Translations under genes and position numbers: made by a program | In this document: positions 1-6,197 of the stretch, one piece after another | How positions within the stretch are numbered: the stretch's first letter is position 1 | Layout of the letters: every line of letters begins with the position of its first letter | Virus record (IMG/VR): IMGVR_UViG_2537562019_000017 | Length of the DNA: 6,197 nucleotides | Source of the DNA: a virus | Lineage: Monodnaviria > Loebvirae > Hofneiviricota > Faserviricetes > Tubulavirales > Inoviridae | Reading direction: 5' to 3' (one strand) | Notes under the pieces: generated by a model | What the model was told of the DNA's origin: nothing | The model's input: the letters and a program-made list of their open reading frames with translations, nothing else | The model's database searches: none

Positions 1-286
1 ATGAAATGTTATAAGTTACTCCTTCCCTCCCCTCCATTGACCAGACGCGAACATATACAGGTATCTGGACTAACTTACCGATAAAATTATTTGCCTGATT
101 CATTACACCGGCATTAACAAGAGCCTGAGATACACGAATAATAATCTGGTCTTGCTTAGTGCCACCAAAACCATCAGGAATCTCTAAGCCAACACCAATT
201 TCATTATAGTATCCCTGACCATTGACCTTATTACGCTGGCGAGCACCAAGCATTTTACCTTTTACAAAAAGACCATAATTAGACAT
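1..286 (-). CDS. Small phage protein, partial (C-terminus lies left of the window); position suggests a filamentous-phage ssDNA-binding protein (gV/RstB-like), function unconfirmed
   Basis: Minus-strand ATG at 284..286 preceded by a strong RBS (AAAGGAG, 287..297) that overlaps the rep stop codon. The frame stays open to the window edge (at least 95 aa, MSNYGLFVKGKMLGARQRNKVNGQGYYNEIGVGLEIPDGFGGTKQDQIIIRVSQALVNAGVMNQANNFIGKLVQIPVYVRVW...). Small, Gly-rich, directly downstream of rep and translationally coupled, as for gV/rstB in inoviruses. Not in the supplied ORF track; translated by hand. Confidence 0.5.
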   Translation of the reverse strand, partial: MSNYGLFVKGKMLGARQRNKVNGQGYYNEIGVGLEIPDGFGGTKQDQIIIRVSQALVNAGVMNQANNFIGKLVQIPVYVRVWSMEGREGVTYNIS

Positions 287-297
287 ATCACTCTCCT

Positions 298-1350
298 TTA
301 ATGCCAGTTACTGGCATGTGAAATACGGTTATAATCGAAAATTAAACCTTTCTCATAAACCCATGATGGAATTTTGGCTGGTTTGGCTTCAAGAGTACGA
401 ACCAACGGAACAACGTTATTAGAATCCGGTGACTCACAATAAAAGTTAATATCTATTCCGAAAGAAAGTAATTCTTTACGGTGTCGGTAGAATGTAGGTT
501 TCGGTAACATCTCTTTCATGTTCGCGCCCTGCTTCCACAATAAATATGTAGACTGTATTTTTCTTGGGAGATTAATTATTTTTTCATCAGTTAATATGGT
601 ATTTTGATTCATTTCTATTCTCCCTACATAGTCAGAGAATAATTTATTGGGCGTCTCAATATTCCAGCTATTACCAAGCGTAAGATTCAAATCAATTAAT
701 TCAGTTGTTCTTAATGTTAATTCAATGCGTAATTTATCTTTTGACCAGTCCAGTAAACCAGCTTTAACGAATTCGTCTGCCATCTGGTGCCCTTTTTTGC
801 CAGATGTATGCTCATCATATTTTGAATAAAATTTCAGGCTCCAACGACGGGAGTTTTTCCCTAAGTAAACAGTGCCACCTTTACCACAGGCGCGACCGTG
901 GCGAGTTTTAGCTTTAAATTCTGCGGCATATAGCCATGCGCGGACATTTTCTAATGTTGACAATGAATACATATAGTTGATATCAATACGCGAGATCTTA
1001 AATTGCCCTGCCATTACCTGTCGATAGGATGAAAGATCATGAGGAATATGCAGTAATGCCAATATTCTGGCATAAGCTGTTAATACTAACCCTTGCAAAT
1101 CATCGGAACCGATAACAGAGTGACCTTGCAAAAACTTTGACGGATTGCCGTCAATATAGAGATGTGTTGCCCGACCTTCGCCATCAGATCCAACAGATCT
1201 TACTTTCATAGTGGATTCATACGAACCGCGAACAGTCAACCGTTTTACTGTTTCCCACTCCACTGCACCGTCAGCATCAACGCTGACGACACTACCAGCC
1301 GGTAATGGTCGGTGTATGCAAGGTAGGATCCCGGTAAACCAGTCAATCAT
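298..1350 (-). CDS. Rolling-circle replication initiation protein, filamentous-phage gII/RstA-like (Phage_CRI-type), copy 1
   Basis: 350-aa ORF with ATG at 1348..1350 and a GAGG RBS 6 nt upstream on the minus strand. The block ...HLYIDGNPSKFLQGHSVIG... and the Tyr-containing LKFYSKYDE segment resemble, from memory, inovirus Rep proteins. Sits between a divergent HTH regulator and a small ssDNA-binding-like gene. Confidence 0.7.
   Translation of the reverse strand: MIDWFTGILPCIHRPLPAGSVVSVDADGAVEWETVKRLTVRGSYESTMKVRSVGSDGEGRATHLYIDGNPSKFLQGHSVIGSDDLQGLVLTAYARILALLHIPHDLSSYRQVMAGQFKISRIDINYMYSLSTLENVRAWLYAAEFKAKTRHGRACGKGGTVYLGKNSRRWSLKFYSKYDEHTSGKKGHQMADEFVKAGLLDWSKDKLRIELTLRTTELIDLNLTLGNSWNIETPNKLFSDYVGRIEMNQNTILTDEKIINLPRKIQSTYLLWKQGANMKEMLPKPTFYRHRKELLSFGIDINFYCESPDSNNVVPLVRTLEAKPAKIPSWVYEKGLIFDYNRISHASNWH
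301..317. other. 17-bp perfect palindrome ATGCCAGT-T-ACTGGCAT at the 3' end of rep (copies at 2132..2148 and 3963..3979)
   Basis: Read directly from the sequence; 8-bp arms around a single central base. Overlaps the last six codons of rep and lies 15 nt upstream of the RBS of the small downstream gene. Confidence 0.6.
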
Positions 1351-1517
1351 GTATCGCCTCAGAGAACAATTTTGTGACCAGAAAGCCTGTCAAGAGCTTA
1401 TTAGTACCAATTCAGTCACACAAATGTACAACCCAAGATCTTACCTCTCAAGTGATTTTGTACTGGATAAGTGACATATTTGTTCTTTTGAAATGGAGCA
1501 AAAAAGTAGGATATAGA
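1351..1517. promoter_or_regulatory. Divergent control region between rep and the repressor-like gene (candidate promoters, operators, possibly replication origin), copy 1
   Basis: 167-bp non-coding gap between two divergently transcribed start codons. Contains three GTAC cores (1404..1407, 1426..1429, 1460..1463) within TTAGTAC / TTGTACA(rev) / TTGTACT motifs, three GTGAC/GTCAC motifs (1374..1378, 1415..1419, 1471..1475) and the 8-bp palindrome AAGATCTT (1435..1442). Exact -35/-10 elements could not be assigned confidently. Confidence 0.5.
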
Positions 1518-1970
1518 ATGAGCAACAACTTCAACAGTAATGGCTACCCGGAAGAAATGGCAGAAGACATAGACTTACAGCGGGCAGAAAGGATAAAAAA
1601 AGCGATCCTAAGCAAATTCACATACGAAAGGATGGAAGAACTGTCTGGCATCAACATTGGCACACTGAAACGGATCGCAAACGCACAGAGGGATGCGAAA
1701 ATCAGTGAGCTGGAAAAAATTGCTGAAATCACTCAGACAGACATATTTGAACTGATTTTTGGCTCCAGTAGCAGTGATATCTACGATTCCAGCAAACGCT
1801 TCTTTGAGACGAGAAGTAAAGATGCGGCTCAGGCGGCTCAATTCATCATCTACAATCTTCGTACCCTTGATGATGAGGACATCCTTTGTTTGGGGAGGGT
1901 TTCGAGTGCCTTGCAAACAGCAACAACATCAAGAAAATGGGATGAGCTTTTCGGGAAGAAGAAAGGCTGA
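1518..1970 (+). CDS. XRE-family (Cro/cI-type) helix-turn-helix transcriptional regulator, phage repressor-like, copy 1
   Basis: ATG at 1518 with AGGA RBS 6 nt upstream; 150 aa. Residues about 21-80 (RAERIKKAILSKFTYERMEELSGINIGTLKRIANAQRDAKISELEKIAEITQTDIFELIF) fit the XRE HTH pattern. Followed by a Ser-rich linker and a roughly 60-aa C-terminal region of unknown function. The track's longer ORF from GTG 1374 would run through the control region and lacks an RBS, so the ATG at 1518 is preferred. Confidence 0.75.
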   Translation: MSNNFNSNGYPEEMAEDIDLQRAERIKKAILSKFTYERMEELSGINIGTLKRIANAQRDAKISELEKIAEITQTDIFELIFGSSSSDIYDSSKRFFETRSKDAAQAAQFIIYNLRTLDDEDILCLGRVSSALQTATTSRKWDELFGKKKG

Positions 1971-1973
1971 GTC

Positions 1974-2117
1974 TCAGAAATGAGACAAACGTGCAGTATT
2001 ACCATCAGGAATCTCTAAGCCAACACCAATTTCATTATAGTATCCCTGACCATTGACCTTATTACGCTGGCGAGCACCAAGCATTTTACCTTTTACAAAA
2101 AGACCATAATTAGACAT
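1974..2117 (-). pseudogene. Junction-truncated chimeric copy of the small gV-like gene (47 aa), copy 2
   Basis: Same start and RBS as the gene at 1..286, but after codon 39 the reading frame crosses the repeat junction (2000/2001) and ends after 8 junction-derived codons (NTARLSHF, stop at 1974..1976). Confidence 0.5.
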
Positions 2118-2128
2118 ATCACTCTCCT

Positions 2129-3181
2129 TTAATGCCAGTTACTGGCATGTGAAATACGGTTATAATCGAAAATTAAACCTTTCTCATAAACCCATGATGG
2201 AATTTTGGCTGGTTTGGCTTCAAGAGTACGAACCAACGGAACAACGTTATTAGAATCCGGTGACTCACAATAAAAGTTAATATCTATTCCGAAAGAAAGT
2301 AATTCTTTACGGTGTCGGTAGAATGTAGGTTTCGGTAACATCTCTTTCATGTTCGCGCCCTGCTTCCACAATAAATATGTAGACTGTATTTTTCTTGGGA
2401 GATTAATTATTTTTTCATCAGTTAATATGGTATTTTGATTCATTTCTATTCTCCCTACATAGTCAGAGAATAATTTATTGGGCGTCTCAATATTCCAGCT
2501 ATTACCAAGCGTAAGATTCAAATCAATTAATTCAGTTGTTCTTAATGTTAATTCAATGCGTAATTTATCTTTTGACCAGTCCAGTAAACCAGCTTTAACG
2601 AATTCGTCTGCCATCTGGTGCCCTTTTTTGCCAGATGTATGCTCATCATATTTTGAATAAAATTTCAGGCTCCAACGACGGGAGTTTTTCCCTAAGTAAA
2701 CAGTGCCACCTTTACCACAGGCGCGACCGTGGCGAGTTTTAGCTTTAAATTCTGCGGCATATAGCCATGCGCGGACATTTTCTAATGTTGACAATGAATA
2801 CATATAGTTGATATCAATACGCGAGATCTTAAATTGCCCTGCCATTACCTGTCGATAGGATGAAAGATCATGAGGAATATGCAGTAATGCCAATATTCTG
2901 GCATAAGCTGTTAATACTAACCCTTGCAAATCATCGGAACCGATAACAGAGTGACCTTGCAAAAACTTTGACGGATTGCCGTCAATATAGAGATGTGTTG
3001 CCCGACCTTCGCCATCAGATCCAACAGATCTTACTTTCATAGTGGATTCATACGAACCGCGAACAGTCAACCGTTTTACTGTTTCCCACTCCACTGCACC
3101 GTCAGCATCAACGCTGACGACACTACCAGCCGGTAATGGTCGGTGTATGCAAGGTAGGATCCCGGTAAACCAGTCAATCAT
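2129..3181 (-). CDS. Rolling-circle replication initiation protein, filamentous-phage gII/RstA-like, copy 2
   Basis: Identical 350-aa translation to copy 1, offset by 1,831 bp. Confidence 0.7.
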   Translation of the reverse strand: MIDWFTGILPCIHRPLPAGSVVSVDADGAVEWETVKRLTVRGSYESTMKVRSVGSDGEGRATHLYIDGNPSKFLQGHSVIGSDDLQGLVLTAYARILALLHIPHDLSSYRQVMAGQFKISRIDINYMYSLSTLENVRAWLYAAEFKAKTRHGRACGKGGTVYLGKNSRRWSLKFYSKYDEHTSGKKGHQMADEFVKAGLLDWSKDKLRIELTLRTTELIDLNLTLGNSWNIETPNKLFSDYVGRIEMNQNTILTDEKIINLPRKIQSTYLLWKQGANMKEMLPKPTFYRHRKELLSFGIDINFYCESPDSNNVVPLVRTLEAKPAKIPSWVYEKGLIFDYNRISHASNWH

Positions 3182-3348
3182 GTATCGCCTCAGAGAACAA
3201 TTTTGTGACCAGAAAGCCTGTCAAGAGCTTATTAGTACCAATTCAGTCACACAAATGTACAACCCAAGATCTTACCTCTCAAGTGATTTTGTACTGGATA
3301 AGTGACATATTTGTTCTTTTGAAATGGAGCAAAAAAGTAGGATATAGA
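3182..3348. promoter_or_regulatory. Divergent control region, copy 2
   Basis: Copy of 1351..1517 offset by 1,831 bp; identical in spot checks. Confidence 0.5.
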
Positions 3349-3801
3349 ATGAGCAACAACTTCAACAGTAATGGCTACCCGGAAGAAATGGCAGAAGACA
3401 TAGACTTACAGCGGGCAGAAAGGATAAAAAAAGCGATCCTAAGCAAATTCACATACGAAAGGATGGAAGAACTGTCTGGCATCAACATTGGCACACTGAA
3501 ACGGATCGCAAACGCACAGAGGGATGCGAAAATCAGTGAGCTGGAAAAAATTGCTGAAATCACTCAGACAGACATATTTGAACTGATTTTTGGCTCCAGT
3601 AGCAGTGATATCTACGATTCCAGCAAACGCTTCTTTGAGACGAGAAGTAAAGATGCGGCTCAGGCGGCTCAATTCATCATCTACAATCTTCGTACCCTTG
3701 ATGATGAGGACATCCTTTGTTTGGGGAGGGTTTCGAGTGCCTTGCAAACAGCAACAACATCAAGAAAATGGGATGAGCTTTTCGGGAAGAAGAAAGGCTG
3801 A
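3349..3801 (+). CDS. XRE-family HTH transcriptional regulator, phage repressor-like, copy 2
   Basis: Identical translation to copy 1; ATG at 3349 with the same RBS. Confidence 0.75.
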   Translation: MSNNFNSNGYPEEMAEDIDLQRAERIKKAILSKFTYERMEELSGINIGTLKRIANAQRDAKISELEKIAEITQTDIFELIFGSSSSDIYDSSKRFFETRSKDAAQAAQFIIYNLRTLDDEDILCLGRVSSALQTATTSRKWDELFGKKKG

Positions 3802-3804
3802 GTC

Positions 3805-3948
3805 TCAGAAATGAGACAAACGTGCAGTATTACCATCAGGAATCTCTAAGCCAACACCAATTTCATTATAGTATCCCTGACCATTGACCTTATTACGCTG
3901 GCGAGCACCAAGCATTTTACCTTTTACAAAAAGACCATAATTAGACAT
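3805..3948 (-). pseudogene. Junction-truncated chimeric copy of the small gV-like gene (47 aa), copy 3
   Basis: Copy of 1974..2117 offset by 1,831 bp. Confidence 0.5.
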
Positions 3949-3959
3949 ATCACTCTCCT

Positions 3960-5012
3960 TTAATGCCAGTTACTGGCATGTGAAATACGGTTATAATCGA
4001 AAATTAAACCTTTCTCATAAACCCATGATGGAATTTTGGCTGGTTTGGCTTCAAGAGTACGAACCAACGGAACAACGTTATTAGAATCCGGTGACTCACA
4101 ATAAAAGTTAATATCTATTCCGAAAGAAAGTAATTCTTTACGGTGTCGGTAGAATGTAGGTTTCGGTAACATCTCTTTCATGTTCGCGCCCTGCTTCCAC
4201 AATAAATATGTAGACTGTATTTTTCTTGGGAGATTAATTATTTTTTCATCAGTTAATATGGTATTTTGATTCATTTCTATTCTCCCTACATAGTCAGAGA
4301 ATAATTTATTGGGCGTCTCAATATTCCAGCTATTACCAAGCGTAAGATTCAAATCAATTAATTCAGTTGTTCTTAATGTTAATTCAATGCGTAATTTATC
4401 TTTTGACCAGTCCAGTAAACCAGCTTTAACGAATTCGTCTGCCATCTGGTGCCCTTTTTTGCCAGATGTATGCTCATCATATTTTGAATAAAATTTCAGG
4501 CTCCAACGACGGGAGTTTTTCCCTAAGTAAACAGTGCCACCTTTACCACAGGCGCGACCGTGGCGAGTTTTAGCTTTAAATTCTGCGGCATATAGCCATG
4601 CGCGGACATTTTCTAATGTTGACAATGAATACATATAGTTGATATCAATACGCGAGATCTTAAATTGCCCTGCCATTACCTGTCGATAGGATGAAAGATC
4701 ATGAGGAATATGCAGTAATGCCAATATTCTGGCATAAGCTGTTAATACTAACCCTTGCAAATCATCGGAACCGATAACAGAGTGACCTTGCAAAAACTTT
4801 GACGGATTGCCGTCAATATAGAGATGTGTTGCCCGACCTTCGCCATCAGATCCAACAGATCTTACTTTCATAGTGGATTCATACGAACCGCGAACAGTCA
4901 ACCGTTTTACTGTTTCCCACTCCACTGCACCGTCAGCATCAACGCTGACGACACTACCAGCCGGTAATGGTCGGTGTATGCAAGGTAGGATCCCGGTAAA
5001 CCAGTCAATCAT
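3960..5012 (-). CDS. Rolling-circle replication initiation protein, filamentous-phage gII/RstA-like, copy 3
   Basis: Identical 350-aa translation to copies 1 and 2. Confidence 0.7.
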   Translation of the reverse strand: MIDWFTGILPCIHRPLPAGSVVSVDADGAVEWETVKRLTVRGSYESTMKVRSVGSDGEGRATHLYIDGNPSKFLQGHSVIGSDDLQGLVLTAYARILALLHIPHDLSSYRQVMAGQFKISRIDINYMYSLSTLENVRAWLYAAEFKAKTRHGRACGKGGTVYLGKNSRRWSLKFYSKYDEHTSGKKGHQMADEFVKAGLLDWSKDKLRIELTLRTTELIDLNLTLGNSWNIETPNKLFSDYVGRIEMNQNTILTDEKIINLPRKIQSTYLLWKQGANMKEMLPKPTFYRHRKELLSFGIDINFYCESPDSNNVVPLVRTLEAKPAKIPSWVYEKGLIFDYNRISHASNWH

Positions 5013-5179
5013 GTATCGCCTCAGAGAACAATTTTGTGACCAGAAAGCCTGTCAAGAGCTTATTAGTACCAATTCAGTCACACAAATGTACAACCCAAGA
5101 TCTTACCTCTCAAGTGATTTTGTACTGGATAAGTGACATATTTGTTCTTTTGAAATGGAGCAAAAAAGTAGGATATAGA
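5013..5179. promoter_or_regulatory. Divergent control region, copy 3
   Basis: Copy of 1351..1517 offset by 3,662 bp. Confidence 0.5.
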
Positions 5180-5632
5180 ATGAGCAACAACTTCAACAGT
5201 AATGGCTACCCGGAAGAAATGGCAGAAGACATAGACTTACAGCGGGCAGAAAGGATAAAAAAAGCGATCCTAAGCAAATTCACATACGAAAGGATGGAAG
5301 AACTGTCTGGCATCAACATTGGCACACTGAAACGGATCGCAAACGCACAGAGGGATGCGAAAATCAGTGAGCTGGAAAAAATTGCTGAAATCACTCAGAC
5401 AGACATATTTGAACTGATTTTTGGCTCCAGTAGCAGTGATATCTACGATTCCAGCAAACGCTTCTTTGAGACGAGAAGTAAAGATGCGGCTCAGGCGGCT
5501 CAATTCATCATCTACAATCTTCGTACCCTTGATGATGAGGACATCCTTTGTTTGGGGAGGGTTTCGAGTGCCTTGCAAACAGCAACAACATCAAGAAAAT
5601 GGGATGAGCTTTTCGGGAAGAAGAAAGGCTGA
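5180..5632 (+). CDS. XRE-family HTH transcriptional regulator, phage repressor-like, copy 3
   Basis: Identical translation to copies 1 and 2; ATG at 5180. Confidence 0.75.
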   Translation: MSNNFNSNGYPEEMAEDIDLQRAERIKKAILSKFTYERMEELSGINIGTLKRIANAQRDAKISELEKIAEITQTDIFELIFGSSSSDIYDSSKRFFETRSKDAAQAAQFIIYNLRTLDDEDILCLGRVSSALQTATTSRKWDELFGKKKG

Positions 5633-5651
5633 GTCTCAGAAATGAGACAAA

Positions 5652-5676
5652 CGTGCAGTATTACCAACACTGCACG
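5652..5676. other. Inverted repeat / hairpin (8-bp stem CGTGCAGT...ACTGCACG, 9-nt loop ATTACCAAC) spanning the right array boundary
   Basis: Read directly from the sequence. The left arm lies inside the repeat unit (also at 1990..1997 and 3821..3828); the right arm exists only in the right flank. The ACCA junction microhomology (5663..5666) is in the loop. Lies 20 nt downstream of the repressor stop; no adjacent U-tract. Confidence 0.6.
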
Positions 5677-5716
5677 TTCTGGATTGAGCGATTTTTAAAC
5701 ACCAGAAAAAGGGTAA

Positions 5717-6115
5717 ATGATGAACAAAACAGTGTATGTACCAAGCTACTTCCAGCCTATCTACAAAGAAGTAACCATCAAAGTTCCTACCGGAAACACA
5801 AAACGATTCCTGGGTCTCATCGACATTGAAGAAAAAATCCGAAAAAGAGAAGTTATTCAGGATGGCTGGTCTGATTGCCAGATTGACGGGGAAAGACTCA
5901 ATGAAGATGTTGGTCGAGCCATTAATAAACTTAATCGGGAAGGGTATGAGGTTATTTCAATAACCCCTGCTACCTCAGGAAGCTGGGCTTATAAATATAA
6001 ACAAAACAGTATTCGTAATGGAAACGGTGATGGCAGTTATGGATATGGTTACGGTTATTCATACACCGAAGGCGTTATGATTCTGGCAAAGAAAATTGAG
6101 AAAGAGGACGTCTGA
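5717..6115 (+). CDS. Hypothetical protein, 132 aa, with a Gly/Tyr low-complexity segment (GNGDGSYGYGYGYSY)
   Basis: ATG ATG start at 5717/5720 with an AAGGG RBS upstream. No N-terminal hydrophobic signal sequence. The C-terminal part (REGYEVISITP...GVMILAKK) is vaguely reminiscent of small DUF4177-like proteins, but I cannot confirm this without a search. Confidence 0.6.
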   Translation: MMNKTVYVPSYFQPIYKEVTIKVPTGNTKRFLGLIDIEEKIRKREVIQDGWSDCQIDGERLNEDVGRAINKLNREGYEVISITPATSGSWAYKYKQNSIRNGNGDGSYGYGYGYSYTEGVMILAKKIEKEDV

Positions 6116-6117
6116 TA

Positions 6118-6197
6118 ATGGATTTTATCCGTAAAACTTTGGGTGGATTAAAAGCAAGTTATTATATCCGTCACTTCGTTTTTGGTGCATTAATTTC
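6118..6197 (+). CDS. Hypothetical protein, N-terminal fragment (runs off the window); hydrophobic N-terminus suggests a membrane protein
   Basis: ATG at 6118, two nt after the TGA stop of the upstream gene, with a GAGGA RBS about 10 nt upstream (translational coupling). Translation MDFIRKTLGGLKASYYIRHFVFGALI... Confidence 0.45.
   Translation, partial: MDFIRKTLGGLKASYYIRHFVFGALI

Follow-up and report, generated by a model that had tools for sequence, protein, structure and literature searches.

The stretch analyzed here (the window) is IMG/VR record IMGVR_UViG_2537562019_000017, 6,197 nucleotides (nt) of DNA that are 100% identical to the chromosomes of two Bangladeshi enterotoxigenic Escherichia coli (ETEC) strains, O114:H49 90-9280 and ETEC-2264, and in which a tandem array ends inside the loop of a hairpin at positions 5652-5676. 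The array lies inside an 8.8-kb filamentous prophage beside hipBA on the E. coli chromosome, and this prophage is of the YpfPhi/CUS-1 type, integrated at dif. The viral strand corresponds to the minus strand of the window and carries rep, gV, the coat genes, zot, and the secretin gene; the plus strand carries an RstR-like repressor gene divergent from rep and two cargo open reading frames (ORFs) from 5717 on. This is also the gene order of YpfPhi, in which YPO2273-75 are the repressor, rep, and ssb (PMC4266046). As set out below, the hairpin is best read as the (+)-strand replication origin of the prophage, and the boundaries of the array coincide with the position at which Rep is predicted to nick it. 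The features on which the argument depends are the following (a caret marks the predicted nick or the corresponding break, and origin positions are counted from it).

1..286, minus strand: intact gV, encoding a single-stranded DNA (ssDNA)-binding protein of 105 aa (PF17426, E = 1e-52); it leaves the window at the left end
298..1350, minus strand: rep, encoding a rolling-circle initiator of the gpII/G2P family (350 aa); repeated at 2129-3181 and 3960-5012
1518..1970, plus strand: gene for a 150-aa RstR-like helix-turn-helix repressor, transcribed divergently from rep; repeated at 3349-3801 and 5180-5632
170..2000: repeat unit 1 (1831 bp), with the 5' part of gV, rep, the divergent promoter region, the repressor gene, and the right half of the putative origin, delimited by perfect period-1831 identity
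2001..3831: repeat unit 2, a perfect copy of unit 1
3832..5662: repeat unit 3, likewise a perfect copy of unit 1, ending at the predicted nick of the sole intact origin
5663..5666: ACCA (viral strand: TGGT), the microhomology of 4 bp with which the array ends on the right
1997..2008: hybrid junction 1 (TATT-ACCA-TCAG), with the origin left arm lost and no hairpin regenerated
3828..3839: hybrid junction 2, identical to junction 1
170..177, minus strand: partner pseudo-site in gV, reading CTGATGGT^TTTGG on the viral strand, a 6/8 match to origin -8..-1 (GTGTTGGT)
5652-5676, read on the plus strand: inverted repeat with arms CGTGCAGT (5652-5659) and ACTGCACG (5669-5676) and loop ATTACCAAC (5660-5668)
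5650..5678, minus strand: the putative intact origin hairpin, AACGTGCAGT GTTGGT^AAT ACTGCACGTT, assigned from folding, M13 register homology, and stem covariation
5643..5679, minus strand: conserved 37-nt block GAACGTGCAGTGTTGGTAATACTGCACGTTTGTCTCA, with hardly any variation between the E. coli prophages and phage I2-2

The array consists of three identical 1831-bp units followed by a terminal 4 bp (ACCA) and spans 170-5666, over which a repeat search and a script both found zero mismatches at period 1831, so that the units are 100% identical. Tandem Repeats Finder, run on the window, did not report it because the longest period considered there is 500. Both internal junctions read GCAGTATT-ACCA-TCAGG, and the left partner, GCCACCAAA-ACCA-TCAGG, has its ACCA at 170-173, inside the genuine gV-type gene; on the viral strand, a GTGTTGG word lies upstream of this pseudo-site, its 3' end ~20 nt before it. 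Microhomology of at least 4 bp would be expected at 1.6% of random junctions. Junction 1 folds poorly (-5.3 kcal/mol, z = -0.5). The array junction is present in 3 of 5426 E. coli genomes, with identical flanks in all of them, namely 90-9280 and ETEC-2264, which have three units each, and E2980, which carries a deleted derivative. Because it is seen in independent assemblies, the array is not an assembly artifact, and its presence in only these three genomes with the same flanks indicates that it is real, recent, and arose once in the lineage. The intact 120-bp hairpin region, on the other hand, is matched at 100% in twelve E. coli genomes, and in strain DA33137 both the gV ACCA site and the hairpin are present in each of two whole-prophage copies (period 8849). 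An earlier note, made from the letters of the window alone, had described the array, its right boundary, and internal junctions at 2000/2001 and 3831/3832 breaking at ACCA, an ACCA at 170..173 in a gV-like gene, and an 8-bp-stem inverted repeat downstream of the repressor gene, and had inferred a single-copy ancestor; its coordinates and description are correct, the inverted repeat folds as proposed, and the ancestor exists, relatives such as DA33137 keeping the hairpin and both ACCA sites.

Several features point to the hairpin as a replication origin. A-T pairs lengthen its stem to 10 bp (5650-5659 with 5669-5678), and as ssDNA it folds with -16.2 kcal/mol on the minus strand (z = -5.1, with 0/200 shuffles as good) and with -15.5 kcal/mol on the plus strand (z = -4.75). 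On the viral (minus) strand, the element reads GAACGTGCAGT GTTGGTAAT ACTGCACG TTTGTCTCA. The intergenic region of phage I2-2 holds the same block (2668-2705) while all of the flanking sequence has diverged; this is the sole non-coding similarity between the prophage and I2-2 (87.5% over 48 nt), and the rep genes share 64% DNA identity. The block is also kept in more than 100 E. coli prophages with a different repressor allele, where the alignment begins just past the repressor stop codon, as well as in YpfPhi of Yersinia pestis (identical; L027 and L035), in Klebsiella, and in Sulfuritalea and Marinobacterium prophages, whose Reps are 40-46% identical. Of 61 Rep-anchored viral loci in which 700 nt or more of sequence is available upstream, 53 have one such hairpin on the rep-sense strand, 37-660 nt upstream of rep except in L094, where duplication B (described below) brings the distance to 1405 nt. 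The structure is maintained across Rep relatives by covariation, with TGCAG/CTGCA replaced by TCGGG/CCCGA and C-G replaced by A-T, G-C, or T-A; four stem pairs have changed on both sides, and 94.8% of the alignment cells are paired vs 33-45% with slid partner columns. The loop of intact origins, collected by pattern scans and nhmmer, is almost always GT^(A/G)ATAC (TT^AAT in one, L065), and the downstream TTTGTCTCA is largely retained.

The linked initiator belongs to the G2P family, as shown by its profile matches (PF05144, E = 1e-72; PF05155, E = 3.5e-34; TIGR01629, E = 2.5e-77), and this protein (WP_001386054) has its nearest phage counterpart in I2-2 gpII, with 58% identity, and is more distantly related to M13 gpII, with 23% identity (blastp E = 7e-7). 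A G2P-family initiator thus stands beside a rep-sense hairpin that has T^AATA in its loop, is homologous to a mapped origin, and is conserved with the initiator while keeping its structure. From these sequence comparisons, the hairpin would be a new, unmapped member of the Ff-type origins; we found no mapped origin for the I2-2/YpfPhi/CUS-1 replication module, and the phrase 'origin of replication' is absent from the YpfPhi review (PMC4266046). Megablast of the window against the phage collection gave no match, I2-2 being reached by protein search only, and an Rfam search of the window and of the small plasmids described below gave none either. Two other functions were considered for the hairpin and rejected. 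As a transcription terminator, which would then be its main function, the hairpin is flagged on one strand alone, the minus strand; its plus-strand tail is not T-rich, and the block is kept even in the absence of a repressor gene. A complementary-strand (primase) origin would have DnaG starting at CTG and hence a 5' end at ~+6, not at the -2..0 where the junctions lie; in addition, an Ff-like (-) origin is already present in I2-2 and in the small plasmids, which also counts against this reading.

The nick position can be predicted from M13, where pII cleaves GTTCTTT^AATA within a hairpin loop closed by AGTCCAC...GTGGACT (PMC11962056); similarly, RstA of CTXphi nicks the apical loop of its origin hairpin (PMC4439123). 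When the hairpins are aligned at T^AATA, origin +1..+20 of the prophage (AATACTGCACGTTTGTCTCA) matches the M13 sequence AATAGTGGACTCTTGTTCCA at 14/20 positions, and among the 12,814 20-mers of M13, the sole match of at least 14/20 is exactly pII +1..+20; by chance ~0.4 such matches would be expected anywhere in M13, and ~3e-5 for one register set beforehand. Rep is therefore predicted to nick at GGT^AATAC on the minus strand, between 5663 and 5662. Unit 3 has its right boundary at this predicted position, with which both internal junctions of the array also coincide once the 4-nt ambiguity is taken into account.

The same breakpoint recurs in related prophages, in at least four further duplications of independent origin. 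Scans with right-half origin patterns and BLAST searches with junction sequences gave six junctions, with five distinct partner sites, from E. coli, Klebsiella, and a metagenome, all of the form X-GT^AATACTGCACG and all starting at origin +1.

A, this window: partner in gV, CCTGATGGT^TTTGG; period 1831; copies 100% identical
B, L010, an E. coli-like prophage: partner in rep, AAACAGT^AAAACGG; period 754; copies 99.6% identical
C, L029/L033, Klebsiella spallanzanii: partner at the gI/gIV boundary, GTCCCGT^ATATGC; complex mosaic, so that copy identity is not applicable
D, L048, a contig from a metagenome, with another type of repressor: partner in gVIII, ATCAAGT^GGTG; period 2419; copies 100% identical
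E, L092, E. coli AB_24_S34, with a UTI89-type repressor: same rep site as B; period 763; copies 99.87% identical
F, L093, E. coli LSN03-016011/A, with different structural genes: partner in rep, CGCGGT^TCG; period 776; copies 100% identical

With microhomologies of 2-4 nt, the possible break ranges are [-4,0] for A, [-2,+2] for B and E, [-2,+1] for C, [-2,0] for D, and [-3,0] for F, and they overlap only at -2..0, an interval that includes the predicted nick. One endpoint thus lies at the predicted nick in all six cases, and the other is variable and resembles the nick region. All six partners end in GT, a dinucleotide with a frequency of ~6% (522 in 8849 nt); left-arm origin words of 7-8 nt (GTGTTGG; GTGCAGTG) lie upstream of partners A, B, E, and F (4/6), and these four score in the top 1.3-2.1% of the 522 phage GT sites. 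At the site used in B and E, F has CACT and not CAGT, and its break is displaced by 24 nt to the GGT that follows downstream. The B/E and F junctions rebuild an 8-bp hairpin with the right arm of the origin. Every duplicated segment runs from origin +1 in the direction of rolling-circle synthesis. In a self-comparison of all of the collected loci, no partial tandem repeat with a readable junction started elsewhere than at origin +1, the remaining repeats being whole-phage tandems. The Klebsiella spallanzanii locus L033 also has a 225-nt tandem repeat (3546-3925) with a full origin per copy, its junction masked by N. A scan with the left half of the origin (ACGTGCAGTGTTGGT), limited to viral contigs, returned normal origins, mostly chance 15-mers, and one odd remnant in L073 (IMGVR_UViG_3300030382_000881), an otherwise unrelated 17.9-kb viral contig. 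There, 31 nt at ~2858-2888 are 90% identical to the origin left flank plus left half and stop exactly at ...GTGTTGGT, followed by unrelated sequence; this stretch may be a junction of the left half with another sequence or a captured fragment.

We consider it probable, from the sequence evidence above, that the first duplication of the array was the work of the gpII-type Rep, through aberrant termination or strand transfer, and that homologous recombination then brought it to three copies. In normal termination, following Ff chemistry, Rep cuts the regenerated origin and joins ...GT-3' to the displaced 5' end (PMC11962056). To form the array, Rep would nick the origin, the 3'-OH would be extended, and the old strand would be displaced, 5'-AATAC first; Rep would then join the origin 5' end (5'-AATACTGCACG...) to a 3' end in gV (...CCTGATGGT-3'), 1831 nt downstream, at a site that mimics the left side of the origin. 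Premature termination might free a 1831-nt circle running from +1 to the partner site, which would recombine back into the prophage, or the displaced 5' end might be religated directly to the growing 3' end. Either route would give a tandem duplication from origin +1 to gV' with the hybrid junction TGGT^AATAC, and the resulting sequence would be the same for both. The step from two to three copies would most simply reflect unequal homologous recombination or the integration or capture of a multimer. So understood, the rearrangement would be a natural instance of a known process, initiator-mediated illegitimate recombination.

The explanation that does without Rep, and that we regard as unlikely, is slippage or template switching in which the hairpin stalls the fork or exposes its loop, a nascent TGGT 3' end in gV re-anneals to the loop ACCA to give the duplication, and RecA amplifies the product. 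Template switching and slippage are the standard model for bacterial duplications, and short homology of 2-4 nt is indeed found at every junction, next to a stable hairpin, with a likeness to the left arm upstream of four partners that could stabilize mispairing. Such a process would, however, set breakpoints by local homology or structure and without direction bias, whereas six events with five partner sites fall in the same 2-nt interval, which is that of the M13-register nick; every duplicated segment lies on the rolling-circle downstream side (ascertainment bias is acknowledged here), none of the junctions is in the stem or the loop center, and junction D, with 2 nt of homology, uses the second and not the first GT of the loop GTTGGT. 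A nick by Rep followed by joining by the host is in our view still less probable. In that case, a chromosomal fork would collapse at the nicked origin and microhomology-mediated repair would rejoin the end, in line with the breakpoint at the predicted nick, the short homology, and the proposal that forks meeting an RstA nick lead to double-strand breaks in CTXphi hybrid plasmids (PMC4439123). Resection by RecBCD would nevertheless scatter the breakpoints, all six of which lie within 2 nt of the nick; an end at the nick would be without the TGGT/GT common to every partner, and the mimicry of the origin left arm by partner sites also speaks against it.

There is very little to recommend XerCD recombination at a dif-like site, a phage integrase, or a terminator hairpin that was broken by chance, even though the prophage is integrated at dif, relatives have whole-phage tandems, and a minus-strand scan flags the hairpin as resembling a terminator. 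Against these readings stand the partner sites, which are unrelated coding sequences, the conservation of the block in I2-2, where no repressor gene adjoins it, and the recurrence at one nucleotide position, which is not chance. No dif-like site with up to 3 mismatches is present in the array; the only one is an exact 28-bp dif at L001 6125-6152, at the distal prophage end ~11.5 kb from the hairpin, which excludes Xer recombination at the junctions, where the 28-bp dif-like site of a XerCD product is lacking. The earlier note had likewise argued against XerCD and integrase. Its preferred mechanism is retained in part: illegitimate recombination with short homology stands, but generic template switching is not favored, given the fixed breakpoint, the direction, and the GT partners. 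The alternative that it offered, a Rep nick or termination site with aberrant rolling-circle termination, fits better with the conserved Rep-linked hairpin, the M13 register, and the six junctions, and the comparison with inovirus origins that it proposed gave the I2-2 block and the M13 pII site described above.

Several observations nonetheless weigh against a Rep-driven origin of the array. The predicted nick position derives from M13 homology and from the junctions themselves, and a nick might alternatively lie in a degenerate core like that of M13 (ACTCTTGTTGC...GCAAC), which I2-2 and the prophages retain on the upstream side of the hairpin. Small plasmids with a Rep_1 initiator have the same hairpin but no G2P Rep. 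Partners C and D share the terminal GT only, with no further origin likeness, and junction A rebuilds no hairpin. Microhomology of 2-4 nt is equally a product of host-driven template switching. As for sampling, most of the hybrids came from right-half probes and the junction-B query, which favors the detection of junctions between another sequence and the right half, and the BLAST of E. coli genomes returned one place per record, so that the survey of hybrid junctions is not unbiased; the covariation set was likewise chosen in part with a hairpin filter, although several members came from nhmmer without it.

The degenerate core just mentioned is found, together with a pII-binding repeat but without its hairpin, in I2-2 (L004 2535-2580; CTTCTTTTTTTGGGGGGTGTACTCTTGTTGCAAAATCGCAAC) and in the window at 5680-5716 (minus strand), and it may represent what is left of an older Ff/IKe-type origin next to the current one. 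The small circular plasmids, of ~2.1-2.4 kb, comprise L031 (Kluyvera sichuanensis, 2357 nt, with a 95-nt terminal overlap), L034, L036, L040, L057, L059, and L069, and encode a pC194/pKYM-type Rep_1 initiator (PF01446, E = 1e-85) without a G2P Rep. Their Ff-like intergenic module combines a (-) origin resembling that of M13 (81% over 135 nt), an intact (+) core that is likewise M13-like (TGTTTAATAGTGGACTCTTGTTGC), and an I2-2-like packaging-signal fragment, followed ~55 nt further by the I2-2/YpfPhi-type hairpin. At least 80% of L031 is covered by 27 plasmid records from E. coli, Klebsiella, Salmonella, and Mixta, and these elements look like natural phagemids or satellites. L059, a metagenome contig of 3080 nt, has two origin hairpins, the second with a compensatory C-G to T-A change in its stem (CTGTGCAG...CTGCACAT).

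Other rearrangements are also seen among these prophages. E2980 (NZ_LR882978) has a second rearrangement, a deletion (L005 6598/6599) that begins within the secretin gene and reaches the intergenic region between rep and the repressor gene, by which gIV through rep were lost with a 2-nt overlap, leaving a defective prophage with one hybrid junction. The prophage with duplication B is defective as well, having lost ~1.9 kb with the secretin gene and its neighbors (L010 418/419). Because both deletions lie away from the origin, not all rearrangements here are nick-anchored. Whole-prophage tandems at dif occur in DA33137 (L002), whose two copies run across the record start, and match counts suggest five copies in SW070919 (NZ_CM129861) and three in YZB902 (NZ_CM135960). 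A complete CUS-1-like filamentous phage genome has been deposited as a plasmid, 'pMTY14759_untypable1' (NZ_CP128883.1, 9565 bp) of E. coli TUM14759; it is presumably the replicative form, because the chromosome of the same strain also matches.

The remaining features of the window are as follows.

2001..2117, minus strand: gV fragment, truncated and joined to origin sequence, which carries a pseudogene annotation; second copy at 3832-3948
5633..5648: small hairpin GTCTCA-GAAA-TGAGAC directly after the repressor stop codon, its 3' arm overlapping TTTGTCTCA
5717..6115, plus strand: first of the two cargo ORFs, near the prophage end by hipA, part of the phage but outside the array

The small hairpin is merely 66% paired across relatives. 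The repressor gives a weak HTH_3 match under the Pfam cut-off and is assigned by its position, which is that of YPO2273 in YpfPhi (PMC4266046). The cargo ORFs in 5717-6197 have no family match, with a weak sub-threshold DUF4177 match only, and the cargo slot between the origin and the hipA-side prophage end is variable, with other ORFs in UTI89 and an abortive-infection family gene in AB_24_S34 (L092 7359-8288).

The proposed origin can be compared with several known systems. As in Ff phages (M13/f1/fd), the origin would lie on the rep-sense strand and the hairpin would be cut in the 3' part of its loop by a G2P-family initiator, with T^AATA at the nick and 14/20 matches after the cut; unlike in Ff, however, the nick is predicted, Rep shares only 23% identity with M13 gpII, the two stems are unrelated in sequence, the origin is separated from rep by a repressor gene, and the prophage is integrated at dif. 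In Ff, a tandem pair of origins frees the segment between them as a circle (PMC11962056). YpfPhi of Y. pestis and CUS-1 of E. coli K1 have the same gene order, and the origin block is identical in Y. pestis, but only whole-genome tandems, and no origin, are described for YpfPhi (PMC4266046). Phage I2-2 also carries the block in its intergenic region, but has neither a repressor nor integration (PMC7307601). The repressor and rep modules next to prophages that are known as RS2/RS1 of CTXphi, and the tandem arrays of Vibrio cholerae, resemble the present case in the divergent rstR-like repressor and rep, the origin hairpin nicked in its loop (PMC4439123), the dif integration, and the extra module copies next to the prophage; RstA, on the other hand, is an HUH enzyme of a different family. 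In CTXphi, the origin adjoins the repressor gene, as the proposed origin does in the prophage here, and RS1 is an element of its own that is integrated by Xer, flanked by attachment sites, and carries rstC. The units of the array carry repressor and rep but are bounded by the predicted nick and a site inside gV, or inside rep in other prophages, and because there are no attachment repeats the array is not an RS1-like element; an RS1-like satellite was rejected on these grounds.

Initiator-driven illegitimate recombination is known mainly from laboratory plasmids; Michel and Ehrlich reportedly observed it in 1986 at the M13 and pC194 origins in hybrid plasmids. The junctions described here share with such events at rolling-circle origins, and with Ff miniphages, one endpoint at the nick and a variable second endpoint with a short likeness to the nick region. 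Those cases, however, were laboratory deletions and defective phages, whereas these are natural tandem duplications and an amplification in chromosomal prophages, recurring in several lineages and with one hot pseudo-site inside rep.

A more speculative reading, to which we give only a small chance, is that the duplications are recaptured mini-replicons of 1.8 kb (origin right half, repressor, promoters, and rep) or built-in terminators that tame the single prophage. The mini-replicons would have been excised by premature rolling-circle termination and then recaptured, the array being their chromosomal footprint. Duplications B, E, and F each recreate a hairpin like that of the origin, 0.75 kb downstream of the true one, and for this reason may act as built-in terminators, so that the Rep of a single, otherwise terminator-less prophage would be diverted into harmless minicircles while the repressor dose is doubled. 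If true, this would be a general route to the taming of filamentous phages, or to RS1-like satellites and small rolling-circle plasmids.

Taken together, the natural junctions narrow the predicted nick in the replication module of I2-2, YpfPhi, and CUS-1 down to 2 nt, which is a directly testable prediction, and the natural recurrence, the pseudo-site hot spot inside rep, and the nick prediction at the nucleotide level are of use beyond this locus, because such arrays are otherwise liable to be annotated as misassemblies or pseudogene clutter. From the point of view of the host, prophages in pathogens such as ETEC and Klebsiella have apparently been remodeled by initiator-driven recombination, with repeated duplication of the module for immunity and replication, and the extra copies of repressor and rep and the origin-like sites could alter immunity, prophage stability, and local genome stability by dif.

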